A stretch of DNA of 64,000 nucleotides from positions 1 through 64,000 of IMG/VR virus record IMGVR_UViG_3300011113_000287. The stretch is one strand, 5' to 3'. The translations under genes and the position numbers were made by a program. Below are positions 22,444 to 38,062 of the stretch, one piece after another. Position 1 is the stretch's first letter, and the number at the start of each line of letters is the position of its first letter. The notes under the pieces are model-generated. The model saw only the letters and a program-made list of their open reading frames with translations, searched no databases and had not been told where the DNA came from. This DNA is from a virus.

Positions 22444-22464
22444 GATTACTACCTCCTGTGTCCC

Positions 22465-22495
22465 AGACTACTATTGCCCGTACTATCCGTGTCAA
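22465..22495 (-). promoter_or_regulatory. Promoter P2
   Basis: TTGACA-CGGATAGTACGGGCAATAG-TAGTCT; CRP-like site at 22505. Confidence 0.8.
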
Positions 22496-22579
22496 ATGCC
22501 CGTGTGTGACGTGCGTCACGCATGTGCGTGGTCGTGCGCTCGTGCGTGGTCGCCCGTGTGGTCGCACCTGTGTGGTCGG

Positions 22580-22894
22580 TCACTTCCACGTGGGGTTACC
22601 TGCCCTCGTCATCACGACGTACACTACGTCGTTCCATACCTTGCGCCGTGCTTTCATGCCTCGCAGGTCGTGTGCCTCCACCTTCCATTGGATAGGCTCG
22701 TTGTCGTCCATCTCCACGTCTCCGACGAACGTGTCGTAGTGCGTCCAGCCCCTACCTCCCGTGTCGGCATCGTTGTCGTCGTCAATGAGTTCGTAGAACT
22801 CGTCCTCCGACATGGTGTCGTACCAGCACCCCCCGTCATTGACACGCTTGGGCGAGCCATCGGGGTTCGTGCGTACTGTGCTAATCGTTGTCAT
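22580..22894 (-). CDS. Hypothetical acidic protein
   Basis: MTTISTVR start after AGGAGG; downstream of P3. Confidence 0.7.
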   Translation of the reverse strand: MTTISTVRTNPDGSPKRVNDGGCWYDTMSEDEFYELIDDDNDADTGGRGWTHYDTFVGDVEMDDNEPIQWKVEAHDLRGMKARRKVWNDVVYVVMTRAGNPTWK

Positions 22895-23108
22895 TCTTGC
22901 CTCCTGCCCCCAGCGTAACATTCGCCGTACTATCGGTGTCAAGCCCACGTGTGTGACGCTTGGCACGCCTACGTGCGTGTGTGGTCGTGCGTGTGGTCGT
23001 CCCCGTAGCCTCACGGTGATTACGACGGGTACACTTGCCACATACCTTGTGTGCGGTGAACGCCACCATCATGTCGCTGGTGTCTCCGCATTGTGAGCAC
23101 GGGGTCAT
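22881..23108 (-). CDS. Small Zn-finger protein
   Basis: CSQC...CGKC; the C-terminal tail reads through regulatory DNA. Confidence 0.5.
   Translation of the reverse strand: MTPCSQCGDTSDMMVAFTAHKVCGKCTRRNHREATGTTTRTTTHARRRAKRHTRGLDTDSTANVTLGAGGKNDND
22912..22942 (-). promoter_or_regulatory. Promoter P3
   Basis: TTGACA-CCGATAGTACGGCGAATGT-TACGCT; CRP-like site at 22952. Confidence 0.8.
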
Positions 23109-23416
23109 GAGATAGCCTCCTCGTCCATGTCGTCGTCGTCGTCCATCGCAAGGTTGGGGAAGTAGGTGACGGTTGCGTTGCGCCCCATGCTGTCTTGCCT
23201 ATTCCACGTGTCCACCAGCATGGTGAGCGTGTCACGCTCGTCCATGTCCATGAGATTACGGGCAAGTGCCAGCAAGCACTTCACGGGGTCATCGCTCACG
23301 ATGCCCAGACATGACTTGCCGTACATGTTGCGCCCTGAGTAGGCACGGACTTCGCCGTCCCCGTTGAGGGCTGTCTCAATGTTGCTTATCTGTTCGTCGG
23401 TCAGTTTCGTTGTCAT
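23105..23416 (-). CDS. Hypothetical protein (YSGRxMYGxxC type)
   Basis: Leaderless start 6 nt after the -10 of P4. Confidence 0.75.
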   Translation of the reverse strand: MTTKLTDEQISNIETALNGDGEVRAYSGRNMYGKSCLGIVSDDPVKCLLALARNLMDMDERDTLTMLVDTWNRQDSMGRNATVTYFPNLAMDDDDDMDEEAIS

Positions 23417-23422
23417 GTCCCC

Positions 23423-23453
23423 AACTTATCATTCGCAATACTATCGCCGTCAA
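23423..23453 (-). promoter_or_regulatory. Promoter P4
   Basis: TTGACG-GCGATAGTATTGCGAATGA-TAAGTT; CRP-like site at 23463. Confidence 0.8.
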
Positions 23454-23515
23454 GTGCTTTCGTGTGACACACGTCACTTACGCATGCGTGCGTGTGGTCG
23501 TAGTGTGTGTGGTCA

Positions 23516-23917
23516 TTAGTGACAACGTATCCACTCAACGGGGTTCTCCCGATAGTACCTGTCCCGTCGCTCGCACGCCAGCCGATACACTTCGTCCTCG
23601 TACGCCTTGTAGTACGCCCGTGCCCACGCTCGCACCTCCCATTGGAGCACGTACCTTTCGGGCATCTCCTTGCCATACGTCTCCTGCCACGCCTCAATGG
23701 GGTTGGGCATGTCTGCCTCCCATGCGAGTGTGCCCCCGATGTGGGCATGGATAATGTGGTTCAGGGCTTCCATGCTCATGTCCCCTATCTCGTGGAACAG
23801 GTCATGGTAGGCATGTGCCGTACCGACGATGCGTCCCCATTCGTTCCATTCGTGTCTGTGCTTCTCCCACGTGTCCTCGTACGTGTGCGTGTGGTCGTCC
23901 GTGCGTGTGGTCGTCAC
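23516..23917 (-). CDS. Hypothetical protein
   Basis: GTG start overlapping the upstream stop, GAGG RBS. Confidence 0.65.
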   Translation of the reverse strand: MTTTRTDDHTHTYEDTWEKHRHEWNEWGRIVGTAHAYHDLFHEIGDMSMEALNHIIHAHIGGTLAWEADMPNPIEAWQETYGKEMPERYVLQWEVRAWARAYYKAYEDEVYRLACERRDRYYRENPVEWIRCH

Positions 23918-24207
23918 TTCGCCACCTCGCTCGTTGCCAACATCTCCACGCTGGGGAAGTAGTCGGGGTAATGGTTCTCCCAACAGTCGTCGTTAGCGTC
24001 CTCCCATGACTGAATGTAAAGCGTGCCGTCCTTGCCCTCGCCGTCCCACTCCGTAGCCTCCAATGCCACGTGTGCCACGTCGTCGGTGTGTGTGGGCTTG
24101 CGAACGGACACGATGACGTGTGCCCCGTCCCATGCTTCGCCTTCCTCCAACACTACTTTAACTACCGTAATGCCACCTGTCTTGTGAGTAATGTGTGTCG
24201 TTGCCAT
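23914..24207 (-). CDS. Hypothetical protein
   Basis: AGGAGG RBS; downstream of P5. Confidence 0.7.
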   Translation of the reverse strand: MATTHITHKTGGITVVKVVLEEGEAWDGAHVIVSVRKPTHTDDVAHVALEATEWDGEGKDGTLYIQSWEDANDDCWENHYPDYFPSVEMLATSEVAK

Positions 24208-24225
24208 TAGTTGCCTCCTACCGCA

Positions 24226-24256
24226 ACAGTATCATTAACACTACTATCGGTGTCAA
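24226..24256 (-). promoter_or_regulatory. Promoter P5
   Basis: TTGACA-CCGATAGTAGTGTTAATGA-TACTGT; CRP-like site at 24266. Confidence 0.8.
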
Positions 24257-24272
24257 GCGTGGTCATGTGACG

Positions 24273-25028
24273 TTAGTCACCCCACCATTCGCTGCTCGTG
24301 GTGTTACCGTGCTCGTCGTACCTGCGAGGCTGGTCAAGTTCTGCGATAGTCTCCAATGCGTACTCGTTGCCTGAGTAATACTCAATGGTGGCGTAGCCTG
24401 CCCTTGCCATCTCCCTACACAACGTCCGTATCTCGTCGTTCATGGTGTCCATCGCCTCCCACAACGCCCGTTCGTCGGCGGTCATGCGGTCACGGGACTT
24501 CTCAGTCATGGCGATGAAGTATCCATTCATTACTGCCGTCCCGTTGGCGGTGGAATAGCCCACCTCGTCGCCGTCCTCGTTGTAGTAGTGGATAGTGAAC
24601 GAACTTTCGTGGGGATAACTATTATCGCCCACGAAGTCGGCGTAGCGAATACCCTCGCCCCACGTAAGTGCCTTCGCTTCGTCGGCGTACAACTTGCCCC
24701 GAACGCTTGCCCCGTCTCCCTGACAGTACCCCAGCGAGTACGTCACACGGAAACCGTTGCGGTTCTTGTGGTCGCCTTCTGCGAACAACCTGCGCCACGA
24801 ATAGGACGTACCGTCGTGGTCGTCGCTTCCCGTTGCCCTGCGAATGAACACGTCTTGTAACGTCTCCACGATGTGCTCGTCGTTCATGTGTATGTAGTTG
24901 TACGAACGAACGTCCTCAACTACTTTCTGTTGTGCTTCCTTAGACAGTTCTGCGAACGTGTAAACGTAGCGAGAACGTGTCACCAATGTGTTTATCTCAT
25001 GTTGCGTTGTGGTCATGTTGTCCTCCAT
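24273..25028 (-). CDS. Hypothetical protein (VYTFxEL...YSLGYCQGDGAS)
   Basis: 251 aa; downstream of P6. Confidence 0.75.
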   Translation of the reverse strand: MEDNMTTTQHEINTLVTRSRYVYTFAELSKEAQQKVVEDVRSYNYIHMNDEHIVETLQDVFIRRATGSDDHDGTSYSWRRLFAEGDHKNRNGFRVTYSLGYCQGDGASVRGKLYADEAKALTWGEGIRYADFVGDNSYPHESSFTIHYYNEDGDEVGYSTANGTAVMNGYFIAMTEKSRDRMTADERALWEAMDTMNDEIRTLCREMARAGYATIEYYSGNEYALETIAELDQPRRYDEHGNTTSSEWWGD

Positions 25029-25034
25029 GCCCTA

Positions 25035-25065
25035 ACCTTATCATCTGGAATACTATCGCTGTCAA
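25035..25065 (-). promoter_or_regulatory. Promoter P6
   Basis: TTGACA-GCGATAGTATTCCAGATGA-TAAGGT; CRP-like site at 25075. Confidence 0.8.
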
Positions 25066-25085
25066 GCGGTGTTATGTGTCCGTTG

Positions 25086-25586
25086 TCACACGTAGTCGGT
25101 AAGCGGTTGCCCCGTGTAGGGTACTCCGAATGTCTGCTCGTACAACGCCAATCCATCTGCCCACTCGCTCCACGTCCCATCGCTGGTAACGTTCACCAAG
25201 TCGCCGTAGTGCTGGCTTGCTCGCAATAGTATTGCCGTCACTACTGCGTCGTAAGGCTTGTAGGCGGTCTTACAGAAGTTAAACACGCCTTCTCCCTTCT
25301 CAATGCCTTCCTTCTCCCACTCCGCTACCGACACTTCTGCTGACCAATACAGGGTCTCGTGCCCGTCCTTGCCAACTCCGTTGAGTGCGAAGTATCCTTC
25401 GGTAAAGTCAGGTTGAGTACCGTCCTCGCCTATGCCATTGGCAAGTGCGATGCCGTTCTCCTGCGCCTGCTTACAGATGCGTTGTGCGTCCAGCACCAAG
25501 CGTCCGTACGCCTCACGTGCCTGCGCCCGTGCGTGTGTGGTCGCTTGCGTGTGGTCGTGCCTGCGCCAATAGTGTGTGTATCCCAT
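25086..25586 (-). CDS. MGYTHYW-type phage protein
   Basis: MGYTHYW...HET...FCKTAYKPYD...SDG. Confidence 0.75.
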   Translation of the reverse strand: MGYTHYWRRHDHTQATTHARAQAREAYGRLVLDAQRICKQAQENGIALANGIGEDGTQPDFTEGYFALNGVGKDGHETLYWSAEVSVAEWEKEGIEKGEGVFNFCKTAYKPYDAVVTAILLRASQHYGDLVNVTSDGTWSEWADGLALYEQTFGVPYTGQPLTDYV

Positions 25587-25608
25587 GTGGTCGTATCCTC
25601 CTGTTGTC

Positions 25609-25639
25609 AATGTATCACACGAACTACTATCGGTGTCAA
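25609..25639 (-). promoter_or_regulatory. Promoter P7
   Basis: TTGACA-CCGATAGTAGTTCGTGTGA-TACATT. Confidence 0.8.
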
Positions 25640-25654
25640 GTCGTGTGGTCGTTG

Positions 25655-26119
25655 TCACCACGATGCGTGGTAGTAGAACTCCCAACTATCAGGCATAGTA
25701 AGTAAGTGCTTAATAAGTTTGGCGGTGTAGTCAATGTCCATGTAAAAGTATTCGTTGTGCGGTGTGTCATCACCCCACAGAAAACGAGAGGAAAACAACT
25801 CTTTGGCTTTACTGTGGTCGGCAATAACCTGCTCGCAACTTTCCAGCAACAGCGACAAGTCCTCACGAGGAACGTATGTTTCAGCACCATTATTCTCCTC
25901 ATAGTTGGTGTTATCTGCGAACCATTGGTGAATGTGGTAAGCCTTGCGCCATTGTCCTACCTTTACGCTCAACAAGACACTTTGTACCCACATGTCATTA
26001 TCAACGGAAAACTCAGCCACTTTACTAATCTCCATGAGTTTGTGAAAGTCCTCCAAATCGGTGCTGGTGCTGTACGACGAATAATAGTTCCTTGCGTACA
26101 AGTATTGGTCAAGTCCCAT
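25655..26119 (-). CDS. MGLDxY-type phage protein
   Basis: MGLDQYL...WRK...IHQWF...YYHASW. Confidence 0.75.
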   Translation of the reverse strand: MGLDQYLYARNYYSSYSTSTDLEDFHKLMEISKVAEFSVDNDMWVQSVLLSVKVGQWRKAYHIHQWFADNTNYEENNGAETYVPREDLSLLLESCEQVIADHSKAKELFSSRFLWGDDTPHNEYFYMDIDYTAKLIKHLLTMPDSWEFYYHASW

Positions 26120-26123
26120 GTGG

Positions 26124-26384
26124 TCACTTTCCTTTCTTGGATTTGGATTTTTTGGCTTTGGACTTCTTTCGCTTGCGCTTGTTTGCGTGGGCGACTATTT
26201 CCTCCAACGTCTTGCTCAACTTCACGTCAAGTTTGTAGTCCTTGCTTTGTGGAGACAACCGAAGCCACTCGTAGTCGTCAATGTCGTACACGGGTTGGTC
26301 GTTACTCCACATTGACAGTTGTCCGTTGTCCACCTGCCAACCATAACGCTTGTCCCATTTGATAACGAAGTAGTGTTCTTTCAT
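26124..26384 (-). CDS. Hypothetical protein with Lys-rich tail
   Basis: AGGAGG RBS; downstream of P8. Confidence 0.7.
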   Translation of the reverse strand: MKEHYFVIKWDKRYGWQVDNGQLSMWSNDQPVYDIDDYEWLRLSPQSKDYKLDVKLSKTLEEIVAHANKRKRKKSKAKKSKSKKGK

Positions 26385-26401
26385 GTTGTCCTCCTAGTTG
26401 G

Positions 26402-26432
26402 AATGTACCACACGGGTTACCATCGGTGTCAA
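26402..26432 (-). promoter_or_regulatory. Promoter P8
   Basis: TTGACA-CCGATGGTAACCCGTGTGG-TACATT. Confidence 0.8.
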
Positions 26433-26433
26433 G

Positions 26434-26958
26434 TCAGCCAACTTGCGTAAGTTCTCCGCACACTCCGCACGTGTAGTAGTCTCCCAGCGTTGTGGTCGGG
26501 TCAAAGTGATGCTCCCACGTCTCAATGGGGTGCGAGCACTCCGTGAGTGTGGTCTGCTGTTCCACCAAGCCTTCCAACTGCGCCACCTTGTCGCCTTCCT
26601 CCGCCATGTCAAACTTAAACAAATCTGCGCTGTCCCAATGAGAAACGTCCACGATGAAATCAACCGTGCCGTCGCCTTGCGTGGTCAGTTTCGCTCCTTC
26701 GGGCAACCGACGAACGATGTAGTAATCGTCGTCAGCGTTCCAAATGAGATACTGCTTGTCGTCGGCACACTCCCCACACACACGGTCTCCCGTGTCTCCG
26801 TTGGGGTAGTGCCCCGAACCATTGGGCACTTCCGTCCCACACTTGTCACATAAGTAGTAGTCGCTCCACGTGGGCAGTAAGTTGCTCTTGTTCCCACACA
26901 TTGTGTCCCCACAGTTGGGGCATGCCTTTCCGTCGTGGTCGGTGATAAAGGTAGTCAT
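26434..26958 (-). CDS. Multi-Zn-ribbon protein
   Basis: CPNC, CDKC, CGEC, CGVC. Confidence 0.65.
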   Translation of the reverse strand: MTTFITDHDGKACPNCGDTMCGNKSNLLPTWSDYYLCDKCGTEVPNGSGHYPNGDTGDRVCGECADDKQYLIWNADDDYYIVRRLPEGAKLTTQGDGTVDFIVDVSHWDSADLFKFDMAEEGDKVAQLEGLVEQQTTLTECSHPIETWEHHFDPTTTLGDYYTCGVCGELTQVG

Positions 26959-27095
26959 TTCAGGCTCTCCTTGATGTGCCACGCCAGCGCACGTCCCCTG
27001 TCGTACGACTCAATGTACGGTTCGGGGTAATGCGTAGTAACGTCGTAACGATACTCCCGTATGCCATTGATAAATGCCTTGATGTGTTTAATCAT
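26955..27095 (-). CDS. 46-aa protein (not in the ORF track)
   Basis: MIKHIKAFINGIREY...IKESLK; ATGA overlaps at both ends. Confidence 0.55.
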   Translation of the reverse strand: MIKHIKAFINGIREYRYDVTTHYPEPYIESYDRGRALAWHIKESLK

Positions 27096-27532
27096 TTCAG
27101 GCTCTCCCATACTTCATCGTCGTCTATCAGTTCTACTGCTTGCGATACTGCTTCCTGTACGTCAAAGTGAACGCAGTCCAACCAACCATCGGTGATACCT
27201 TCACCGTAGGCATACAAATCAAACCATGCGTTGTTAAGCCACTCAATGCGTTCGTCTAAGTCAGCAAGTTCCTTGTCGGTCTTGGCAATACTAATGAGGT
27301 CACTCACGTAGCGGATTATCTCGTCGGGCTGTTTGTTCGCTTTACGAGCCTCTTTGCTGTCCCACACGTGGATACGCATTACACCATCACAGAACACATG
27401 GATTTCCCTATCACCCTTGACTATCGTTGCTACGGGTTCGTGCGCCTGCCTGTCATTGACGTAGAACGCAGGGTCACGACGGAGCACCAAGTCGTCGTCG
27501 CTAAGGTAGTTGTATTGTACGCTGGCTGTCAT
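27092..27532 (-). CDS. Hypothetical protein
   Basis: 146 aa, coupled. Confidence 0.7.
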   Translation of the reverse strand: MTASVQYNYLSDDDLVLRRDPAFYVNDRQAHEPVATIVKGDREIHVFCDGVMRIHVWDSKEARKANKQPDEIIRYVSDLISIAKTDKELADLDERIEWLNNAWFDLYAYGEGITDGWLDCVHFDVQEAVSQAVELIDDDEVWESLK

Positions 27533-27906
27533 GACAACTCCAAGTTGGGTTGGACAAGCGTGAGTCCTAATGACTCACACACACTAAACGAGTTGTATGC
27601 GTCGGTGGGTTCGTCGCCCCATGACATGCCTGCGGTAATGTTAAACCTACGATTATCTACGTGAAAGAAACCACAGTCACGACGGCTCTCTGAGTCGTAC
27701 ACTTCCTCAATACAGTCAATGAGAAACTGTTGTACGTCCTCTGGTGTAGGCTCTGTGTTGTACCAGCGTGATGTGGCACACATGTCCTCCAAGAACGCCA
27801 CCGTGTTCTTGTACCGTTCTGGTGATGCCAAGTGCTTTGCGTTGTCATACGCCTGCTCTTTCGTGGCTTCCATCTCACAGATGGAGAACATCAGGTCTGC
27901 GCCCAC
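27529..27906 (-). CDS. Hypothetical protein (MGAD...GMSWGD)
   Basis: 125 aa. Confidence 0.7.
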   Translation of the reverse strand: MGADLMFSICEMEATKEQAYDNAKHLASPERYKNTVAFLEDMCATSRWYNTEPTPEDVQQFLIDCIEEVYDSESRRDCGFFHVDNRRFNITAGMSWGDEPTDAYNSFSVCESLGLTLVQPNLELS

Positions 27907-27907
27907 G

Positions 27908-28057
27908 TCACACCCACTTCCCGTTTACGAGCACAAAGTCCATGAACTCTGCGTATTCGGGGTCAGCATGGAATACGTCGGTGCGACAGTATTCGCACAC
28001 TTCGTCCTTTCCATACACCCGTCCCATCGGGCACTCACAATACGATTTGTCGGTCAT
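27908..28057 (-). CDS. Small Cys-rich protein
   Basis: AGGAGG RBS; downstream of P9. Confidence 0.6.
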   Translation of the reverse strand: MTDKSYCECPMGRVYGKDEVCEYCRTDVFHADPEYAEFMDFVLVNGKWV

Positions 28058-28074
28058 TCTTGCCTCCTGCTTAC

Positions 28075-28105
28075 AATGTACCACACGACATACCATTGGT
28101 GTCAA
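28075..28105 (-). promoter_or_regulatory. Promoter P9
   Basis: TTGACA-CCAATGGTATGTCGTGTGG-TACATT. Confidence 0.8.
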
Positions 28106-28174
28106 GCCCCCTGTACGGACGATTACGGGAAGGAGGGGGAGTGCGTAACTCGTCCATACAGGGGGACAAACTTG

Positions 28175-28999
28175 TTATGCGTATGCGTAGACATACTCAA
28201 CGATGGAGAACTCTCCCTTGTCCTCCATCATGTATGCCATCATCTCTGTTACGCCATCAGGGAAATAAAAAAAGATGCGAGTATCGTGAACTCCAAAACT
28301 GTCGCACCCTTCATCAAAGTTTCCCTCATTTTTTTCTTCGTCATAGTCGCCAAACGACACGTATCCGCCAATGAGACCTTGACGTATGGGGTCATTACCT
28401 TTCCAACGATAGGTGATGTTAGCACCAATAGGTTCTTTCGCATTGTATTGTAAGTCAATGGACTGTACCTGCGCCCTGCGCCCGTCGCTCAGTATCAACG
28501 TTTGTTCTCCATCAAATGTTTCCTCGCTCGTGTAGACGGCACGAGACCCACGCACTTGTTCGTAGGACAAATGGCTGTCCTCTCCGTCAATGCGTGCCCA
28601 AATGTGGGTACAGCCAGCGAAATACGGTGTCTCCAACACTTCTATCTCAGACACTCCGTCTCCTACTGTGTTATCCCACTCGTCGTCGTTGTCGTCGTAC
28701 TTGTCCACCAAGATTTCGTAGGCAACGTTGGCATCGGCAGATTTCTCCGTAATGAAGTACCCAATGCGGTTCACGATGTGGTAACCATTAACGATGTACG
28801 TGCCTTTGTCCCCGTCAATGTATGTCCACACGGTGCGTTCCGTGTCGGGAGTATTAGCCCTGTCGCACACGTGCTCCACCTCGTCGCCGTAAATCTCAAA
28901 CATGGTTTGATTAAACGACGAGTCGGGGTCAATGTAGTTAATCATGGGCTTAAACTCTTTCTCCCATGCGTCATAGTCCATACGCACAACTTCGCTCAC
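28175..28999 (-). CDS. Multidomain acidic hypothetical protein
   Basis: VWTYIDGD...GYHIVNRIGYFITE in the N-terminal domain. Confidence 0.7.
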   Translation of the reverse strand: MSEVVRMDYDAWEKEFKPMINYIDPDSSFNQTMFEIYGDEVEHVCDRANTPDTERTVWTYIDGDKGTYIVNGYHIVNRIGYFITEKSADANVAYEILVDKYDDNDDEWDNTVGDGVSEIEVLETPYFAGCTHIWARIDGEDSHLSYEQVRGSRAVYTSEETFDGEQTLILSDGRRAQVQSIDLQYNAKEPIGANITYRWKGNDPIRQGLIGGYVSFGDYDEEKNEGNFDEGCDSFGVHDTRIFFYFPDGVTEMMAYMMEDKGEFSIVEYVYAYA

Positions 29000-29277
29000 T
29001 TGTCGCCTCCCAATGCGTTGTTCATCTTGACAAACGCCGTAACGATGTTTGCGTACGACAGGCATTTGGTCAGCACAGCACGAGACAAGTCATCTGACTT
29101 GCGTGTTGCTTCCATGTCAGAGTCGTTTTTATCGTCCAGCATGTACCACTCCTCACGTTCGGTGTCCCATACGACACCTGTTTCGGAATAGTGCTCGCCG
29201 TACTCGTTGTCTAACCACAGACTGACAATACCATTGTCATCTACTTCGGATACTACGGTAAAGTGATGCTGTTTCAT
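28996..29277 (-). CDS. Hypothetical protein
   Basis: Coupled ORF. Confidence 0.65.
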   Translation of the reverse strand: MKQHHFTVVSEVDDNGIVSLWLDNEYGEHYSETGVVWDTEREEWYMLDDKNDSDMEATRKSDDLSRAVLTKCLSYANIVTAFVKMNNALGGDK

Positions 29278-29504
29278 TAGAACACCAAGAACGTTCGCAA
29301 CTCGTCGTTTGTGTAAGGCACTTCGGTCTCTTTGTCTCCCAATGCCTGAGTGTCGTAGAACACGTCCCAGCCACCGTCTCCAACGAATACAACCTTGCCC
29401 TCAAACGTGCTAACACCCATCTCCTTAGCCTCCTCCAACGTGTCTGCTTCCACGAGGATACCAATGTCAATGGTCTTGGAACAATACTTGATAAACTTTG
29501 GCAT
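29277..29504 (-). CDS. Hypothetical protein (VEAxTLEEA motif)
   Basis: Coupled ORF. Confidence 0.6.
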   Translation of the reverse strand: MPKFIKYCSKTIDIGILVEADTLEEAKEMGVSTFEGKVVFVGDGGWDVFYDTQALGDKETEVPYTNDELRTFLVF

Positions 29505-29505
29505 G

Positions 29506-29751
29506 TTAGCCTACTTTCTCAACGAACAGGTGTCCTGCTCCGTTGCCTTCTTGGTCGGACGACGGGACGATTACCGTGCCGTCTGTGAACTCCACGAGGA
29601 ACGCATAATCTGTGTCGTAGTCCCACGCAAAGATTTCGCACTCGTTGATGGTCATAGGACGCACACGCAACACAGTTTTACCAACGAGAAAGCCAAACTC
29701 CCTCTTGATTACCGTCCTACGTTCTGCGTGTTCTGCTGTTTCTTTTGCCAT
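29506..29751 (-). CDS. Hypothetical protein (SSDQEGNGAGHL)
   Basis: GGAGG RBS; downstream of P10. Confidence 0.7.
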   Translation of the reverse strand: MAKETAEHAERRTVIKREFGFLVGKTVLRVRPMTINECEIFAWDYDTDYAFLVEFTDGTVIVPSSDQEGNGAGHLFVEKVG

Positions 29752-29770
29752 GTCATTACCTCCAAACGAC

Positions 29771-29801
29771 AACTTATCAAATCACTTACTATCGGTGTCA
29801 A
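29771..29801 (-). promoter_or_regulatory. Promoter P10
   Basis: TTGACA-CCGATAGTAAGTGATTTGA-TAAGTT. Confidence 0.8.
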
Positions 29802-30605: not shown

Positions 30606-30606
30606 G

Positions 30607-30876
30607 TTACAACTCCTCCCCATGCTCGTCTGTAAATACAAGGTCTTTCAGCCTCGCTTCGTGTCCGAAACCACACGAGAAGTCGTCCTTTGCGTAATGC
30701 TCAACACGTTCCATTACGCTTTCCTCGTCTACGGTGATACCTTCCTCAATAAGGTTCTCAACGATGCGAACCACGTCGTACGTCACGTGCTTGGCGACGT
30801 TAATGTAGTTACCAAACGGCAACTTTTCCACCATTTTCTCCATCGCTTCTAACGAAACTTTCTGTTTTTTCCTCAT
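30607..30876 (-). CDS. Hypothetical protein
   Basis: Coupled ORF. Confidence 0.65.
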   Translation of the reverse strand: MRKKQKVSLEAMEKMVEKLPFGNYINVAKHVTYDVVRIVENLIEEGITVDEESVMERVEHYAKDDFSCGFGHEARLKDLVFTDEHGEEL

Positions 30877-31160
30877 TGGTTCACATTCCTGTTCCATTGG
30901 GTACGAGGGTGGCGTTCCTCTGCCTTTTTAATCCATTCGTTGTATGAAGTAGGAGTAACGATAAAGGCATGTACGTCGTTAGCAGGAGTTTCAGGGCAAG
31001 CCTTTCCCTCTAACACCGAAACGAGTTTGTGTGTGTATCCGTTCGTGCCAGCAGGAAGGTTGTTCCCACCTGCCGACAGGAACACCATTTGTAACCTGCG
31101 AGGATTACCTTCTGGGTCGTCCTTGCTACACGTGATGTGTAATACGTAGCGAGTAATCAC
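30873..31160 (-). CDS. Hypothetical protein (GNPRRL)
   Basis: Coupled ORF. Confidence 0.65.
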   Translation of the reverse strand: MITRYVLHITCSKDDPEGNPRRLQMVFLSAGGNNLPAGTNGYTHKLVSVLEGKACPETPANDVHAFIVTPTSYNEWIKKAEERHPRTQWNRNVNQ

Positions 31161-31468
31161 TTGCTTCCTTTCTTTCCATCTTTGCCACGCTTGCTATCTC
31201 CACCAGCGTTGATGGTGATACTAGGTGCGTAGTTGATACTTTGGTCAATGTTGATAATAGTATTCTGAGTGTTCCTCAATGCCACGTCGGACGTGAGAAC
31301 GGACACTCTGCCCGTCTTTGTGTCCTCAACGATGAACACCGTTGCTCCATCTCCATGTTTCACAGCGTCCTCCAAACTTGCGAGTGCCATTGACACAACT
31401 TCTGTTTCGTCCTCAGCGTCGTCGTACGACATAGACCACGTGACTACCCAACGTCCAACGTCAGCCAT
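31157..31468 (-). CDS. Hypothetical protein
   Basis: Coupled ORF. Confidence 0.65.
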   Translation of the reverse strand: MADVGRWVVTWSMSYDDAEDETEVVSMALASLEDAVKHGDGATVFIVEDTKTGRVSVLTSDVALRNTQNTIINIDQSINYAPSITINAGGDSKRGKDGKKGSK

Positions 31469-31685
31469 AAATGACAGGCTCGCAGTCGTCGTTCAGTACG
31501 AAGTTGATGCCCAACTCCCGACAATGTTTGCGGAGAAAGGGAACTTCGTCGGAGATAGAGGCGAGTTGTGATGCCAACATGTTCCATTCCTCGTCATTCT
31601 CAACGTCAGGCAACCGTCCTGCGAGCGTGTGAAACCAGCCAACCGTGTCCCAATGGTATTTGCGGTGCTCTGCGTACTTGCTCAC
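31461..31685 (-). CDS. Hypothetical protein
   Basis: Coupled ORF. Confidence 0.6.
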   Translation of the reverse strand: MSKYAEHRKYHWDTVGWFHTLAGRLPDVENDEEWNMLASQLASISDEVPFLRKHCRELGINFVLNDDCEPVIYG

Positions 31686-32125
31686 GCCCTGTCCTCCGAC
31701 ACGTCCTTGACGAACGTCTTGGCAAACACCATGCGGTATCCAAACGTGGTATTGATGTTAAATGAAATCTCGTAACCACGATACAGCATTTGGTTCGTAA
31801 TACGGACTATCTTGTCGTGAGTGAACGCCCACTTGGTAGCGTACTTGTAATAGACGCTTACCATTTCTTGCTTTTCAGCATCGTAACGCTTAGGGAACGT
31901 CACTTCGGACTGTTCTCCGTCGTCGGTAACGATTTCCGTCTTAACGAGGGTGACACGAGGTGTAATACCGCCGATGGTGTCCATCGTCCAACCCCAACGG
32001 GTAAGCCTGTTTACTTGGTCAAACACTTTTGCCATTGAGCGTGCTTTGATGATGCGGTAGCGACGGTTGTGAACTCCGAGTTTGTCGTTGTCTACACGAA
32101 CCTTGCTGGTGAATACGTTTGTCAT
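31682..32125 (-). CDS. Hypothetical protein
   Basis: AGGAG RBS; downstream of P11. Confidence 0.7.
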   Translation of the reverse strand: MTNVFTSKVRVDNDKLGVHNRRYRIIKARSMAKVFDQVNRLTRWGWTMDTIGGITPRVTLVKTEIVTDDGEQSEVTFPKRYDAEKQEMVSVYYKYATKWAFTHDKIVRITNQMLYRGYEISFNINTTFGYRMVFAKTFVKDVSEDRA

Positions 32126-32156
32126 TTTGTTATCTCCTGTTCTTGTCTTTGTTATG

Positions 32157-32187
32157 AATGTATCACACGGGTTACTATCCGTGTCAA
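32157..32187 (-). promoter_or_regulatory. Promoter P11
   Basis: TTGACA-CGGATAGTAACCCGTGTGA-TACATT. Confidence 0.8.
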
Positions 32188-32266
32188 GTCTTGTCACGAA
32201 TAAACACGCTGAGAAAGTAGTACCCACATGTCAGTATTACGCATAATGCGATGATGGCAAAGTCAC

Positions 32267-32515
32267 TCATACGAGAGCCATCTCGTTCTCACGCTCAGGG
32301 TCGTGAACGGTGACTGTGGTAGACCACACTCCGTCAGCGTCCTCTTTCGTTACGAAGTGGAGGTCATAGTTGTCGTCAAACGTCACCCACTCATCACGAT
32401 TAATGATGTGTGAAAGATAGTTCGTACGACGTTCGCTACACGCCAAGTATCCAAACGAGAACCACAGCATTTGGTCTGCGAGTTCGTCGGTTGGCAACCA
32501 TTCCAACTTATTCAT
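32267..32515 (-). CDS. Hypothetical protein
   Basis: Coupled to the whiB-like gene. Confidence 0.6.
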   Translation of the reverse strand: MNKLEWLPTDELADQMLWFSFGYLACSERRTNYLSHIINRDEWVTFDDNYDLHFVTKEDADGVWSTTVTVHDPERENEMALV

Positions 32516-32850
32516 GCTTCCTTCCTCATTTCTTTTGATTTGCGTACAACCATTTTGTGTTGCTCATGGTAGAACTTCATACGACGTTTACGATTACGGT
32601 TCGGCTTACCACGAGGTTGGAAATCAACTCCTCCCCACACCCCGTAGAACTCGTCCTTAGCCAATGCGAAGTTAAAGCACTCACGCACTACTTCGCACTT
32701 AGCACAAATGCTTTGCGTATGCTTTAATTTACTTTTGTAAGTACCTACTTCGTCCTTCTCGCAGTCAAGAAAGAACAGGTTGGAGGGAAGCCCCCTACAA
32801 CCTGCCCTTTCGTACCACGACAGGTCTGGTGTCGTGGCGTTGTCCGTCAC
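32512..32850 (-). CDS. whiB: WhiB-family transcription factor
   Basis: W..RAGC...FF...CAKC.V.REC..FAL....YGVWGG. Confidence 0.9.
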   Translation of the reverse strand: MTDNATTPDLSWYERAGCRGLPSNLFFLDCEKDEVGTYKSKLKHTQSICAKCEVVRECFNFALAKDEFYGVWGGVDFQPRGKPNRNRKRRMKFYHEQHKMVVRKSKEMRKEA

Positions 32851-33854
32851 ACCAACACCAAGTCGTTGATGACCTTCATCACCTGCTCGTCCTGATTAAA
32901 GACCTTCCCCGTGAGAGCGTTCATCATGTTGCGCTCAACACGGTTATCGTCTTTACCGACGACGTGCTGGTTAAAGGTGTTAAAGGCGTGGATAACTCCG
33001 AGTGCCGTGCCCGTGAACGGTGCGACACGTGGGTCATTGACGTACATGTCCTTGATGCGCTCCTGTTTGTTCTCAATGCGAGAGACAGCCTGCTTTGGGG
33101 CGTTCTCGTCTGAGTTAATCGGCATCAACTTGTTCACGATGGCTTCCCACTCACGGTCAGACACCTTGATGCTGGCATACTTGTTCACTTCGGCAACGAT
33201 GTCCTCCGTCATGCGGTGGACGAAACCGAGTGCGTCACGCACATTCTGTAAGCGGAAGTTGCTGTTCTTGCTGTGACGAGCACGGAACGTTTCGGTCTTT
33301 TCGCTAATCGCACGAGCCAGCAAGTTGTCACACTCAACACGAGTGGCAACCTGTTTGTACGTGGTGCTAATAGACCCGTTGTGGCTCGTGGTAGCCAAGA
33401 GCATCGGACGAACGGAGAAGCCGTCAAGCACCTTGATGGTTTCGGGCATCTCAACGCTGACGAAACTCACCGCACCGTTTTTCAGGATACCTGCGCTACC
33501 AATGTTAAGGTCATCGTCCAAGAGATGCGACACGCTCTCAATGAGCCATGACTTGTATTGGTGAATGGCATAGGTGTCCTTAAACATGCCCAGCACATCA
33601 CCGTTGTCGCTACGGACAATGGCTTTGCGGTCAGTCTCCATGCGGTACGTGTCGTTCCACTTGATGTAGACGGGTGCTTCCTGAGCCTCCCACGAATACA
33701 GGCGACGGAGAACGTCCTCAACGGGGATAGCACCCTCGTAGTGATTTGGCTCGTCGCTCTGACTGTCCATGCGGTAGTGCCACGCCGTGCCACGCTGTTT
33801 CGTGTGCCCGATGAGGCAATACTTGTTCAGCCACTCGTATGTTTCCTTACTCAT
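32847..33854 (-). CDS. DUF932-family protein
   Basis: AWH, IVRSD...LG, SAG.LKNG, LLATTSHNGS, RVECDN, RHS. Confidence 0.85.
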   Translation of the reverse strand: MSKETYEWLNKYCLIGHTKQRGTAWHYRMDSQSDEPNHYEGAIPVEDVLRRLYSWEAQEAPVYIKWNDTYRMETDRKAIVRSDNGDVLGMFKDTYAIHQYKSWLIESVSHLLDDDLNIGSAGILKNGAVSFVSVEMPETIKVLDGFSVRPMLLATTSHNGSISTTYKQVATRVECDNLLARAISEKTETFRARHSKNSNFRLQNVRDALGFVHRMTEDIVAEVNKYASIKVSDREWEAIVNKLMPINSDENAPKQAVSRIENKQERIKDMYVNDPRVAPFTGTALGVIHAFNTFNQHVVGKDDNRVERNMMNALTGKVFNQDEQVMKVINDLVLV

Positions 33855-33892
33855 TGTTCCTACCTCCTGTGGTAGTTGTCGTTTGTAACATC

Positions 33893-33923
33893 ACCGTATC
33901 ACACGGCATACTATTCGTGTCAA
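33893..33923 (-). promoter_or_regulatory. Promoter P12
   Basis: TTGACA-CGAATAGTATGCCGTGTGA-TACGGT. Confidence 0.8.
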
Positions 33924-33928
33924 GTCCA

Positions 33929-35836
33929 TTACCGATAATCATTCAGCATGTCCTGTAACAGTTTTGCCGTCATCGTCCCTGCGTCGGCGTTCAGGTTCTC
34001 AGCCCAGCCGTCCAACACCGCCGACGTGCTTTCCGCTTTGGCGTTGAGCAGACTCCACAACCGCATGTCAATAGTTGGGAACTCAGCGTCCACCGCCGTA
34101 ATCCACCACGACACCACATGGCTGTCTTGTCCGATACGGTGACACCTGTCCTCAGCCTGCTGTCCTGTGGACGGGCTGTATGGCATCTCAGCCAACACCA
34201 CGTGCGATGCGGAGGTCAGGTTCAGTCCCGTACCTGCGCTCTCGTACTGTCCCAAGAACACGCTGACCTGCTTGCTCGTGAACTTCTCCACGTACCGTTG
34301 CTTGGCTTCGGGAGTAGAACCTCCTGCCACCATGACAACGCCATGTCCTTCCAACTTCTCGTACAAGGCATTGAGCACCTTACGATGGTATGCGAACACT
34401 ACTACTTGTTCACCCTCTGCGATGAGTGAGTTCACGTGCTCAACTACCGCATTGATTTTGGCGATACCCAGCAGTTCACGCAACTTGTTCATGCGAGTGA
34501 TGACCTCAGCCTTGCTCGCCCGTTGCCATGCTTCCGTGCCATACTTCTCCATGACCCAACGCAAGAAATCACGCTCCGCCGTGCGGTATTCGTCCATCTC
34601 CTCGTTGTTAAGTTCTATGTCAAGTTGCGCCCTGCGCTTGGCAGGAAGGTCAGCCAGCACGTCCTCCTTGCGCCTGCGTACCATACACGTGCCCCGTAAC
34701 ACGGTGTTCAGTTCCGTAGTGTTACTAGCACCATTCATGTTCGGAAATCCGTTCACCACACGGTAATCGCAATACTTGATGAGAAACTGCTTACGTGAGC
34801 CAAACACGTTGTCCAGCCTTCCAATGATGCGGAGAGGGCTAAGCAACTCGCTGGGACGGTTTGGTGTCAGCGTTCCCGACATGAGAGCGACGATGCCACT
34901 AACGGGAATACTATTGGCGATGTATCCGACACCACGTGTGCGCTGTGCCTTCTCGTTCTTGATGCTGTGCGCCTCGTCCACGATGAGCGTGTCATACTTC
35001 CCAGCCAACTTCGTAGCCCACGCACTTACCACGCTGTCACCGATGACGAGAACGTCGTGCTTAGTGAGGGAGTGTGGTTTGCGTCCTTTGACAGTAATGA
35101 CCTTGATAGACGGTGCGAACCTGCGAAACTCCTTTACCCATTGGAGGCGCAAATGGGGAGGTACGACAACGAGTGTCTTTCTTTTGTTCATCGTGGTGTC
35201 CAACGCCAATGCGATGCCCTGTGCCGTCTTGCCCAAGCCCATGCTGTCTGCCAGCAAGACACGTCGGGCTTCCAATGCGTACTTAACGCCAGCACGTTGG
35301 TATGGCAGTAGTGGCAAGTCCAAGTCAAAGCCAAGTTCAGCGTCATGGGACTTGGACAGTTCCACGAGTTCGGGACGAGACACCACAACTCTTGGCATGC
35401 GTTCCAGCCCGTACACAAACAGTTCCAAGTTTGCCAGCAACGTCACGCTGTCCCATTTCAGTTCGGGCAGTTCGGTGACGGACGGGCAGTTCTCGCTATT
35501 GTGGTACGTCAGCCAGCCACCATCGTCAAAGACGTACAGTCCCAGCCCTGCGAGCACGTCATTACCGCACAGCGCACAGGTGTCCTTGCGTTTGTTCACG
35601 AGGATACGTGTTGCGCTCATTGGCAAGTGAGCCTGCGATGCGGTGCGAGTAATCGGCAGTACCGACAAGTATTCCAGCAAGTCATTAGCACTTATAAAGG
35701 TCAGTTCATCAAGGTTCTGCGCCTTTATCAACTCGTCTACCTGCGTCTCGTCAAGCAACCCCAAAGGCATACTACGAGCGATAAGTGATGCCCTTATTTG
35801 GACTTGCTGTTTGGGCAATACGGCGACGTTAGCCAT
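33929..35836 (-). CDS. SNF2-family helicase/translocase (HARP-like)
   Basis: LLADSMGLGKT, DEAH, SGT..PNRP.EL, GTGLNL, QAEDRCHRIGQ. Confidence 0.92.
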   Translation of the reverse strand: MANVAVLPKQQVQIRASLIARSMPLGLLDETQVDELIKAQNLDELTFISANDLLEYLSVLPITRTASQAHLPMSATRILVNKRKDTCALCGNDVLAGLGLYVFDDGGWLTYHNSENCPSVTELPELKWDSVTLLANLELFVYGLERMPRVVVSRPELVELSKSHDAELGFDLDLPLLPYQRAGVKYALEARRVLLADSMGLGKTAQGIALALDTTMNKRKTLVVVPPHLRLQWVKEFRRFAPSIKVITVKGRKPHSLTKHDVLVIGDSVVSAWATKLAGKYDTLIVDEAHSIKNEKAQRTRGVGYIANSIPVSGIVALMSGTLTPNRPSELLSPLRIIGRLDNVFGSRKQFLIKYCDYRVVNGFPNMNGASNTTELNTVLRGTCMVRRRKEDVLADLPAKRRAQLDIELNNEEMDEYRTAERDFLRWVMEKYGTEAWQRASKAEVITRMNKLRELLGIAKINAVVEHVNSLIAEGEQVVVFAYHRKVLNALYEKLEGHGVVMVAGGSTPEAKQRYVEKFTSKQVSVFLGQYESAGTGLNLTSASHVVLAEMPYSPSTGQQAEDRCHRIGQDSHVVSWWITAVDAEFPTIDMRLWSLLNAKAESTSAVLDGWAENLNADAGTMTAKLLQDMLNDYR

Positions 35837-35981
35837 GCTGTTCCTCCTGTTCGTTGTCCACCAAAGATGATACAGCGTCGGTGTTACGACGTGACACAGC
35901 CTCGTCGTACAACCTGTCCAACAGGGCTTCCACCTTGCGGTCAGCCTCTTTGCGTAGTTGTCGTGTGCGTCGGTACGTCAC
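35829..35981 (-). CDS. 50-aa protein (not in the ORF track)
   Basis: GTG start after AGGAGG directly downstream of P13: MTYRRTRQLRKEAD... Confidence 0.55.
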   Translation of the reverse strand: MTYRRTRQLRKEADRKVEALLDRLYDEAVSRRNTDAVSSLVDNEQEEQHG

Positions 35982-35997
35982 TCAGCCTCCTACCCCA

Positions 35998-36028
35998 AAC
36001 GTACTATGCCACCTACTATCGCAGTCAA
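35998..36028 (-). promoter_or_regulatory. Promoter P13
   Basis: TTGACT-GCGATAGTAGGTGGCATAG-TACGTT; CRP-like site at 36038. Confidence 0.8.
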
Positions 36029-36048
36029 GGGACAATGAGTGACTAACG

Positions 36049-37122
36049 TCACACGGAGGACAGCACCTCGTTCCATTGTGCGATGCCGTGCTCCATGTCC
36101 CGTGTTCGTGCCAACTCGTACAGCCTCTCGCCTTCCTCTTTGCGTAGTTGTCGTGAGCCAACGAGTTCACGCAAATGGCGCAGCCATTCGTATGGACGAC
36201 GTGCGATGCGCCCAGCGTTCCACGTTTGCGACAGGCGCACGTACGAGTCGGATGCGGAGGCGACCCACGGGATACCGCTTGCGGAATACTCCAACAATTT
36301 GATTTCAGATTTTGCTTCGTTAAACGGCATTTGGCTCAGGGGTGCAATACCAACGTCCATAATCAATAATTTGGGATAGTCCTGCGGAGCACACATAGGA
36401 AGGGAGTCCACGTATTCTTTTGGCACTCCCGCTTCTTCGGAAAAGTGCGGAGATTTGTCGTGCCAGCCGCCGTGAAAGTAACGAACCTGTGTGGTCGTAT
36501 TTTGTGTGGTCGTCAGTTGATGAAGCACGCCACGCAGGATTTGTAAGTCCCCACTTCGGTGGGCAGTAGAACCAGACCAACCGACATGCACATGTTCCTT
36601 TTCTGTGTGGTCGTGTTTTACGAAGGCTTTGGTATCAACCGTATTAGGAAACAGGACGACGTTCTTGTTCCATTGACCAATGCGTTCATAAAGGAACGGA
36701 GTGGATGCCAATAGCAGGTCGCTGGCTGCGAGTATTGCTTTGTAATGGTTGATGTTTTCTTTGGGACTGTGCTTAGGGTGCGATGCTTTCCACGCTCCGT
36801 TGCTGGGGTTCAGCCCCCAATACCAATCGTCTACATCGTTGATAATGACTTGACCAATTGCCCGTGCCTTTTTGATGTGGTCAGCCAGTCCCTCATTCAT
36901 CATTCTCTGCATGATGATGGTGTCTACTTCGTGTAAGTTTCCCTCGTCGTCTTCTATTTTTAGTTCGGTGTAGTGCCATACCAATCGTCCAACCACGTAG
37001 TCGTAGTTCAGATGTGGTAAATACTTCGCCACACGTGCCCAACCAGAACCTCCCCAATGGGGAAGTTTGTCTGGAGTTACGGACGGATGGAGGCGGTCAG
37101 CGGAAACTACACCGACTCTCAT
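36049..37122 (-). CDS. GT-B glycosyltransferase
   Basis: DVDD, VGWSGS..H..DL, DVGIAPL...FN.AKS.IKLLEYSASGIP.VAS. Confidence 0.88.
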   Translation of the reverse strand: MRVGVVSADRLHPSVTPDKLPHWGGSGWARVAKYLPHLNYDYVVGRLVWHYTELKIEDDEGNLHEVDTIIMQRMMNEGLADHIKKARAIGQVIINDVDDWYWGLNPSNGAWKASHPKHSPKENINHYKAILAASDLLLASTPFLYERIGQWNKNVVLFPNTVDTKAFVKHDHTEKEHVHVGWSGSTAHRSGDLQILRGVLHQLTTTQNTTTQVRYFHGGWHDKSPHFSEEAGVPKEYVDSLPMCAPQDYPKLLIMDVGIAPLSQMPFNEAKSEIKLLEYSASGIPWVASASDSYVRLSQTWNAGRIARRPYEWLRHLRELVGSRQLRKEEGERLYELARTRDMEHGIAQWNEVLSSV

Positions 37123-37352
37123 TAATGTGTGGTCGTCTGTTCCTGTGTGGTCGTGTCTTGCAAAAGTGCTGGCTTCCACGTTGCCTTAAACGCACGCAAG
37201 GCGTTTCCATCCCAAAGCGGAGTAGCAGCGAGGATAACGACGGGTTGCGGGAAATCAGCACGCTTACGAAGGGTGTGAATGCGCTGTTTAACGACCCCAA
37301 GCACGGCTGCCGCTTCTGCTGTTCCGCAGAGGTCTTTTGTATCAATCAACAT
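37122..37352 (-). CDS. Small HTH DNA-binding protein (AlpA/excisionase-like)
   Basis: LCGTAEAAAVLGVVKQRI...FPQP...LW. Confidence 0.8.
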   Translation of the reverse strand: MLIDTKDLCGTAEAAAVLGVVKQRIHTLRKRADFPQPVVILAATPLWDGNALRAFKATWKPALLQDTTTQEQTTTH

Positions 37353-37398
37353 GTTTGTCTCCTGTTGTGTGGTCGTCTTTTGTAGACGGGTTATTATG

Positions 37399-37998
37399 TT
37401 ACATGCCCCAGTGCCCTAATCCACCGTTGTCCAGCAGATATTTGGCGACCCTGAGATTGCAGTCCAAATCATACAAGACTTCCATGTCCCCGAACGACGA
37501 ACCGCACGCATTGGCGGTAACGGTTTTCCACGAAGAGTTAACTTGTAACAACCCACGGTCAATAGAGCCGTCTTTGTTCAATGTCCAAGTGACGTTGCCC
37601 TGGCTGTCCCATCTGGCATTGACCGCCTTTGGGTTGCACCGTGATTCACGCCAAGCAATGTAGGAAAACGTCTTGACGGGCTTCAGACCGTATTGTCTGA
37701 ACAAATCCTCGTATTTTGGACAGGTTTCCGTTTCGTTTATTTCGTTTGTCTTTTTGGTTGTGTGGTCGGTTTTTTTAGGCATAGTTATGGTGGTTATGGG
37801 TAATTCAATAAGGCGTTGGTCGTAGGTGTATCCAGTGGGATACACCGTCTCCATTTCTACGACGTCTCCAATGTTTGCTGGCCCGTCTGATGTCCCAAAT
37901 TGTCCGATTGTCGTTGTTGTAATTGTTCCGATGAATATGACTATGGATGAAACCCAGTGTCGTAACAGAACGCACTCCTTTGTCGGTGGATAAAGCAA
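37399..37998 (-). CDS. Exported lytic transglycosylase (SLT-like)
   Basis: IAWRES.C, DRGLLQVN, NL..AKYL....G..HW; N-terminal hydrophobic segment; start uncertain. Confidence 0.85.
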   Translation of the reverse strand: MLYPPTKECVLLRHWVSSIVIFIGTITTTTIGQFGTSDGPANIGDVVEMETVYPTGYTYDQRLIELPITTITMPKKTDHTTKKTNEINETETCPKYEDLFRQYGLKPVKTFSYIAWRESRCNPKAVNARWDSQGNVTWTLNKDGSIDRGLLQVNSSWKTVTANACGSSFGDMEVLYDLDCNLRVAKYLLDNGGLGHWGM

Positions 37999-38062
37999 AA
38001 GACCGTAACAAATTGACGACGAGCGTCAGGTGGTTACGGTCTGCTATCCAGCATAGCAAAGA

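Follow-up and report, generated by a model that had tools for sequence, protein, structure and literature searches.

The first 64,000 nucleotides (nt) of the virus record IMGVR_UViG_3300011113_000287 (the window hereafter) carry a polar 9-mer, CGACCACAC, which is repeated in short head-to-tail arrays and always points in the direction of transcription. The arrays fall into two compact clusters, and selection on them acts on the nucleic acid. The reading favored here, with a probability of about one half, is that they are operator arrays for a phage-encoded protein of 76 amino acids (aa) that would serve as a polar repressor or roadblock and would also regulate its own gene. In this reading the 9-mer is the recognition unit of a sequence-specific DNA-binding protein made by the phage, most likely the 76-aa protein, whose gene lies within one of the clusters.

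Counts, polarity and layout of the 9-mer

On the + strand the word reads GTGTGGTCG and occurs in 17 exact copies in the window, with 0 on the - strand; dinucleotide-preserving shuffles gave an expectation of 0.95 copies and a maximum of 4. The complete record (92,155 bp) holds the identical 17 copies, again with 0 on the - strand and none beyond the two clusters. An earlier sequence-only reading of the window had reported 17 copies in a single orientation at these coordinates, often in pairs 12-18 nt apart, and regarded a similar density on the opposite strand or genome-wide as the outcome that would speak against it. The window and genome counts confirm the copies, six exact tandem pairs were found, and neither the opposite strand nor the rest of the genome shows such a density. 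The single + orientation also holds, with one correction: almost every gene of this genome is encoded on the - strand, and the sense-strand word is therefore CGACCACAC. Its fuller consensus is A-CGACCACAC-A/G, in which the first seven bases are the strictest and CGACCAC is the core. The word does not behave as a genome-wide polar word of the Chi or KOPS/SRS type because its copies are limited to the two clusters. A literature search for the motif string matched only unrelated primers and oligonucleotides.

The exact copies occupy ~4.5 kb of the 92 kb, as cluster A (36489-37768), which is located at the SLT, helix-turn-helix (HTH) and glycosyltransferase genes, and cluster B (22556-25651). Twelve of the 17 form six tandem pairs with start-to-start distances of 14, 12, 16, 14, 15, and 18 nt, and one more is paired with a one-mismatch copy (starts 23492 and 23507). 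One-mismatch words include CGACCACGC (twice), TGACCACAC, CGACCACAT, CGACCACAA (twice), CGACCACAG, AGACCACAC, and others; in the + strand orientation there are 9 of them between 22.5 and 26.6 kb (cluster B) against ~0.7 expected. The genome has ~25 sites, all co-oriented with transcription. The arrays are direct repeats arranged head-to-tail, with 1-4 copies in the window and as many as 5 in relatives, and a period of 12-18 nt. Five of the exact copies are intergenic and 12 are in open reading frames (ORFs), mostly in tails, linkers, and loops.

Ten near-identical promoters were recognized on the - strand (32187, 29801, 26432, 25639, 25065, 24256, 23453, 22942, 22495, and 22074). They have the form TTGACA-ccGATAGTA with a 19-bp spacer, followed by TG-n-TAnnnT, and the spacer box varies by subclade (GATAGTA, ATACTAC, CCTACAT, and CCAGCA). 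The earlier placement of the clusters at the two ends of an early-type region is only roughly right: the distal part of this promoter-rich region contains cluster B, and cluster A lies upstream of the region. Consensus scans of the promoter region revealed no excess of intrinsic terminators, and none separates the units.

Table 1. Sites of the 9-mer and the genes discussed with them (window coordinates)
Feature	Position	Strand	Location and remarks
Array, four sense copies	22526..22578	-	CGACCACAC at 22570-22578 and 22556-22564; CGACCACGC at 22544-22552 and 22526-22534
Tandem pair, 12-nt period	22979..22999	-	C-terminal tail of zinc-ribbon-like ORF 22881-23108; upstream of promoter 22942
Exact copy (23492-23500) and variant TGACCACAC (23507-23515)	23492..23515	-	Intergenic
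Tandem pair, 16-nt period	23889..23913	-	Adjoins stop of gene 23914-24207
gpX (label used here), His-rich, 133 aa	23516..23917	-	
Tandem pair, 14-nt period	25535..25557	-	Codons ~10-18 (HDHTQATTH) of 166-aa gene 25086-25586
Variant CGACCACAT	25585..25593	-	Between Shine-Dalgarno and start codon of the 166-aa gene; overlaps the ATG
Single copy	25643..25651	-	3 nt past stop of gene 25655-26119; 3 nt upstream of -35 TTGACA of promoter 25639
Tandem pair, 15-nt period	36489..36512	-	Glycosyltransferase gene, TTTQNTTTQ, indel-rich loop; 0-2 copies among relatives
Single copy	36605..36613	-	Glycosyltransferase gene, other reading frame (H-DHT-E)
Tandem pair, 18-nt period	37127..37153	-	Variable C-terminal tail of the 76-aa HTH protein
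Single copy	37367..37375	-	46-nt intergenic 5' leader of the HTH gene, 3 nt upstream of Shine-Dalgarno (0-3 nt in relatives)
Single copy	37760..37768	-	Low-complexity linker (KKTDHTTKK) near 5' end of SLT lysozyme-like gene
Glycosyltransferase-like gene (phrog_7162)	36049..37122	-	Three intragenic sites
Predicted MerR-type winged-helix protein, 76 aa, candidate 9-mer binder	37122..37352	-	

The arrays of cluster B at 22578, 23515, and 25651 begin 0-3 nt past a stop codon and ahead of a CRP-like palindrome and the next promoter. The first of them begins 1 nt past the stop of the upstream gene (22580-22582) and is followed by a CRP-like palindrome and promoter 22495; the second adjoins the stop of the gpX gene and likewise lies upstream of a CRP-like palindrome and a promoter (23453). 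The pair at 23913 also begins right past a stop codon and is followed by gpX instead of a promoter. It makes up gpX codons 2-10 (TTTRTDDHT) only if gpX starts at GTG 23917, in a GTGA overlap. The pair in the 166-aa gene follows the inferred start site of promoter 25639 by ~45-65 nt. In cluster A, the pair in the HTH tail stands 5-13 and 23-31 nt ahead of the glycosyltransferase ATG, and the glycosyltransferase gene is translationally coupled to the HTH gene by a TAATG overlap.

Strain variation was observed at the pair in the zinc-ribbon-like ORF. In contigs from two freshwater metagenome runs (X8, X13), 130 bp (22988-23117) that contain most of this ORF are swapped for 14 nt, and the variant junction adjoins the copy at 22979-22987. 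The 14-nt variant has a TGA 1 nt ahead of the motif, presumably the stop of the upstream gene.

Selection on the nucleic acid and conservation among relatives

Why do most copies lie inside genes? One explanation, which the sequence-only reading had itself raised against its proposal, is that codon usage produces them. This was examined with a codon-aware null in which synonymous codons were shuffled within each gene while the protein and the codon pool were kept (14 cluster genes, 2000 shuffles). The intragenic copies numbered 12, as compared with 2.1 expected and a maximum of 5, so codon usage does not explain the counts. The claimed frame independence is also evident, as the motif yields both DHT and TTTQ in a single gene. 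Further evidence comes from a codon alignment of the glycosyltransferase-like gene with 40 relatives. In the motif-bearing clade, the copies are present in indel-rich loops in the frames H-DHT-E at +509 and TTTQ at +610 and +625. The wobble positions of the motif are fixed (ACG ACC ACA CA), and the adjoining codons are variable. The copy at +509 is kept in most relatives down to 51% protein identity, while motif-less relatives have other residues and codons there. Copies in this gene are gained, lost, or doubled among relatives, and relatives whose glycosyltransferase is ≤45% identical carry unrelated residues at the motif places. The excess over the codon null and the alignment pattern together indicate that selection acts on the nucleic acid, as had been proposed, and that the odd peptides encoded by the motif are a by-product.

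A total of 75 related loci were collected via the glycosyltransferase. All relatives with a glycosyltransferase at least 51% identical (51-85%) contain CGACCACAC, on the sense strand only, at matching offsets in the glycosyltransferase gene and upstream of it. At least one copy of the pair ahead of the glycosyltransferase ATG is kept in most relatives. At the place in the HTH leader, 9 of the 16 motif-bearing relatives shown have an exact copy, and the rest have a degenerate copy or none. The layout in two clusters is conserved as well. In an 87-kb relative, two copies lie at the glycosyltransferase and a five-copy array follows 12.7 kb downstream; the downstream cluster of other relatives contains 3-7 copies. 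These downstream arrays are tied to the gpX gene, within which their position varies; the five-copy array of the 87-kb relative (G001) is a ~25-aa insertion in the middle of the gpX homologue. In relative L013 (16731-16800), a perfectly periodic 15-nt array was observed that consists of four units of ACGACCACCACGCAA and one degenerate unit and encodes (TTTTQ)n. It begins 10 nt past a start codon, and ACGACCACCACGCAA is a variant of the word in which CC replaces A at position 8.

Does the 9-mer occur in this form outside the clade? No match to the region was found by megablast among 50,697 phage records. When bacterial genomes were scanned for the tandem pattern, at least 120 single matches came up, which is about the chance expectation in 596 Gb (an estimate); these were mostly in high-GC Actinobacteria, and the scan is uninformative about a host regulon. 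The same scan of viral contigs gave some matches within this clade, and the unrelated multi-copy loci that were inspected turned out to be plain tandem repeats. Since the tandem pattern elsewhere is at chance level or consists of ordinary tandem repeats, the 9-mer system is, as far as these scans indicate, specific to this phage clade. A 7-mer enrichment in L054 and L062 was rejected as an instance of the motif, its source being threonine/proline-rich repeats.

The 76-aa protein and the proposed operator arrays

Which protein could read the 9-mer? The 76-aa protein matches PHROG families annotated as DNA-binding protein and as excisionase/regulator, with faint matches to HTH_17 and to an AlpA-family structure. 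A structural model built from 20 relatives shows a helix-helix-wing-helix arrangement (predicted local distance difference test score 75.6). It aligned with BldC at Z 6.0 (root-mean-square deviation 2.6, 53 of 54 residues, sequence identity ~17-20%), with the RdfS excisionase at Z 5.9, and with Pukovnik Xis at Z 5.1; BldC is thus among the best matches, which are tied within about one Z unit. Other fold matches were RacA, DNA-binding domains of small terminases and partition proteins, and N-domains of classical MerR proteins. These nearest solved structures are all MerR-type winged helices. The coiled-coil dimerization domain typical of MerR dimers is absent from the model, as is an effector domain. 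The moderate scores support a MerR-type winged-helix fold of the BldC/excisionase kind as a fold assignment and not as a functional proof. The AlpA antiterminator of P. aeruginosa was set aside as a counterpart; it is larger (DNA-contact residues 128-142) and has a different architecture.

Several observations tie this protein to the arrays. A copy precedes the HTH Shine-Dalgarno and another is located in the HTH 3' tail in most relatives, and no other recognizable sequence-specific DNA-binding protein was found among ~45 neighboring ORFs. The putative recognition helix, KQRIH(T/A)LRK, stays constant together with the 9-mer across subclades while the promoter spacer boxes vary, and relatives without the 9-mer have KQQI(H/F)ALRK in its place. 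This contrast, together with the constancy of the 9-mer, hints at a link between the 76-aa protein and the 9-mer rather than the spacer box. Among the options offered by the sequence-only reading, binding sites for a phage regulator, possibly this HTH protein, is the best supported on account of the fold and of the site positions by the HTH gene, and the binding itself stays putative.

One model based on these observations is that the 76-aa protein binds the 9-mers as monomers, which touch one another head-to-tail within arrays of 1-5 units with periods of 12-18 bp. The bound arrays would act as polar repressors or roadblocks, a role suggested by their uniform orientation relative to transcription and by their positions in a leader, over a start codon, beside a -35 element, and at gene boundaries without terminators. 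Two effects would follow. The first would be negative autoregulation of the HTH-glycosyltransferase unit, and the second would be polar repression, roadblock, or insulation of a subset of early units. Activation may occur at the site flanking a -35. In relative L007, CGACCACGACCAC likewise abuts a -35, and the recurrence of this placement suits a role in transcription at the DNA level.

The model has a close counterpart in Gp36 of mycobacteriophage D29, which binds AGGCGGCG-N13-AGGCGGCG at a gene end and represses downstream genes, and which also binds four repeats inside gene 59.2 that are spaced 15, 19, and 16 nt (PMC12266134). The two share an actinobacteriophage setting, a small MerR-like winged helix with a BldC/Xis-like structure, and repeats both at gene ends and in a coding gene. 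They differ in the repeat word (GCGGC within AGGCGGCG as opposed to CGACCACAC) and in the number of sites, which are few in D29 and ~25 here. Moreover, all sites here are co-oriented with transcription in two clade-conserved clusters, the phage is a 92-kb myovirus of a freshwater actinobacterial host lineage, and binding is a prediction. The anatomy of the D29 Gp36 system is nevertheless very close to that of this locus, and by this analogy the likely mechanism has a recent precedent. Streptomyces BldC reads 9-bp direct repeats head-to-tail in variable numbers (PMC5859096). It is a small (68 aa) actinobacterial protein that has a MerR-type winged helix without a coiled coil, as is predicted for the 76-aa protein, and its binding is directional. 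However, BldC is a host developmental regulator, and its repeats are AT-rich and contiguous (9-bp period), whereas the word here is GC-rich with a 12-18 bp period. On these comparisons the locus would belong with the BldC/Gp36 kind, in an uncultured freshwater actinophage clade.

Proteins of the excisionase/Cox type (lambda Xis, P2 Cox, Pukovnik Xis, and RdfS) have the same fold class as the 76-aa model, and some of them double as transcription regulators. Excisionase-type winged helices also assemble cooperatively, head-to-tail, on short direct repeats (PMC12266134). Excisionases act at attachment sites together with an integrase, but neither a tyrosine nor a serine integrase (PF00589, PF00239) was found in the complete genome, in searches in which control genomes score. 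An excisionase function at an attP site is therefore not supported.

If the operator reading is correct, the mode of reading used by BldC and Gp36, in which monomers line up head-to-tail on direct repeats, extends to another phage lineage, and direct-repeat arrays can keep a strict polarity relative to transcription. The strict polarity, the many coding-embedded copies under nucleotide-level selection, and the conserved two-cluster layout are the distinguishing features of the locus, and the coding-embedded copies are a clean natural case in which a protein code and a regulatory code overlap. Freshwater actinobacteria belong to the most abundant bacteria of lakes, and almost none of their phages has been cultured. 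The locus offers a testable pairing of a 76-aa protein and a 9-bp word conserved across a clade.

Several results weigh against the operator reading. The 76-aa protein has no significant match in Pfam, and its structural matches have moderate scores (Z 5-6; Foldseek E 0.03-0.1). That the KQR helix and the motif occur together counts as one phylogenetic event. Some motif-less relatives have an HTH homologue, and no substitute repeat was found near its gene. The 12-18 bp spacing has no helical phasing and is looser than the contiguous 9-bp repeats of BldC. Finally, all copies are on the transcribed sense strand with no intrinsic terminators between units, and an RNA-level reading accounts for this polarity equally well.

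In such an RNA-level reading, which is rather unlikely overall, CGACCACAC acts as a linear unstructured element of the mRNA or in the non-template strand of the elongation complex, and its reader is an RNA-binding or elongation-coupled factor, such as a repressor of translation, a nuclease that processes the RNA, or the reader of an antitermination signal of the ops or put kind. Besides the presence of every copy on the sense strand of co-directional genes, the sites at translation starts fit this idea (the HTH Shine-Dalgarno, the ATG of the glycosyltransferase and 166-aa genes, and gpX codons 2-10), as does the L013 array right past an ATG. Intergenic copies may be transcribed by read-through, since no intrinsic terminators separate the units. 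However, no conserved RNA structure was detected at the motif; most fold z-scores were near 0 (eight segments compared with shuffles), the exception being a small hairpin in the HTH leader, which shows poor conservation in relatives. The analysis found no candidate RNA-binding protein, and the genome has no exact complementary word for a trans-acting antisense RNA. Recognition of DNA would suit the several arrays upstream of promoters and the one that abuts a -35, and the glycosyltransferase copies at +509 to +625 are far from start codons.

A more specific form of this idea, which is improbable, is a strand-specific elongation signal in the nascent RNA or the non-template strand that is used by a phage factor riding or stopping the host RNA polymerase. 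It would be an ops/RfaH-like, put-like, or stoperator-like device of independent origin in lytic freshwater actinophages. Such a signal would explain the sense-only copies, the tolerance of any reading frame, and the arrays at terminator-less gene boundaries. Stoperators are asymmetric, transcription-oriented sites, many per genome, at which a bound monomeric repressor blocks elongation. They are 13-14 bp long and occur singly and genome-wide in short intergenic gaps, and their reader is a ~180-aa immunity repressor of temperate phages. The likeness to the stoperators of L5, proposed by the sequence-only reading, is good for polarity, as 17 of 17 sites here and all counted copies in relatives are in the sense orientation. 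It does not extend to dispersal or single sites: the sites here are 9-11 bp, tandem, and confined to two clusters, and 12 of 17 are in ORFs. A temperate immunity context is doubtful here, as no integrase was found, though no search aimed at a gp71-like repressor was made. The stoperators of Cluster A mycobacteriophages, with L5 gp71, are the subject of PMC9283540 and PMC6550527.

Unlike the RNA-level readings, another possibility keeps the 9-mers as DNA sites and assigns them to a different binder, either a host actinobacterial factor that is recruited or titrated, or a phage WhiB-like protein acting with sigma-A near the -35. Two WhiB-like genes flank the region, and one copy and a variant at promoter 24256 lie right upstream of a -35. 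WhiB7-type factors contact DNA at just this position. The constancy of the word across phages of 51-85% identity is also what a conserved host reader would produce. Nonetheless, this assignment is unlikely. Most copies are not beside a promoter, the sites cluster around the HTH gene, and the bacterial genome scan gave scattered singles at chance level with no visible host regulon. WhiB proteins are not known to read 9-bp words.

The strict orientation and the two clusters 11-13 kb apart also recall iteron systems such as P4 ori/crr, and the 9-mer might accordingly be a polar cue for a DNA transaction (origin or control iterons, primase start sites, a barrier to the replication fork, or a signal for packaging or injection). 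TGGTC, which is a T7-type primase site, forms part of the + strand word, and the phage has its own primase, DnaB-type helicase, SSB, and polymerase. The likeness of the 76-aa fold to small-terminase and partition DNA-binding domains could be read in the same way. Several observations make such a cue improbable, however. No AT-rich unwinding element was seen and no initiator gene was recognized beside either cluster, and no part of the window is richer in GC than cluster B (0.58). The terminase genes are ~35 kb away, and no ends are assignable to the clusters because the genome assembly is circular, its ends overlapping by 127 bp. Finally, the arrays shift within genes among relatives, which suits regional regulatory sites, as in the operator reading, better than a fixed origin or pac site.

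Two further roles were rejected. A promoter for a phage RNA polymerase was considered because of the likeness of the word to T7-type ACGAC..CAC, but no phage RNA polymerase match was found among the large ORFs searched, and several copies are too close to the next start codon for a transcript to fit in between. A substitute for the -35 element, similar to a MotA box, was discarded because inspection found no TAnnnT at a fixed distance downstream of the copies.

Phage, host and neighboring elements

The phage is a myovirus with genes for sheath, baseplate, portal, major head protein, and large terminase, and its replication genes encode a UvsX-like recombinase in addition to the helicase, primase, SSB, and polymerase. 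A search of the window for tRNA and tmRNA genes found none. The two WhiB-like genes (38063-38461 and 32512-32850, both on the - strand; Pfam Whib, E 4e-14 and 2e-15) point to an actinobacterial host, and the first of them has a C-terminal extension of ~50 aa. Public runs with the sequence are freshwater metagenomes from several studies, with no RNA run listed. The genome ends (1-127 and 92029-92155) form a direct terminal repeat of exactly 127 bp, which is the largest k-mer of common assemblers, and the repeat therefore probably reflects a circular assembly and not physical ends.

CRP/GlxR-like palindromes (GTGAC-N4-GTCAC) are present between 9-mer arrays and promoters at 22084-22520, 23460-23480, and 24262-24280. 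The 87-kb relative has four of them within ~400 nt past its five-copy array (L076:2900-3300). Their right half-site, CGTCACAC, resembles the 9-mer CGACCACAC.

At 38000-38040 on the - strand, AGACCGTAAC...GTTACGGTC followed by TTTTGCTTT looks like a large-loop intrinsic terminator. As it is located just upstream of the SLT, HTH, and glycosyltransferase genes, it may mark the start of the cluster A transcription unit. A near-consensus DnaA box (TTATCCACC) comes after it.

A DpdA-like homologue of queuine tRNA-ribosyltransferase (phrog_887) is encoded at 39862-41319 on the - strand, a few genes away from the glycosyltransferase-like gene (phrog_7162). The proximity of these two genes suggests that the phage DNA carries a modified base, possibly 7-deazaguanine. 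A faint HTH_17-like stretch (58809-58904, E 0.03) was observed on the - strand in a 166-aa ORF (58629-59129) between the SSB and helicase genes. This ORF has no PHROG match and could encode another small DNA-binding protein.

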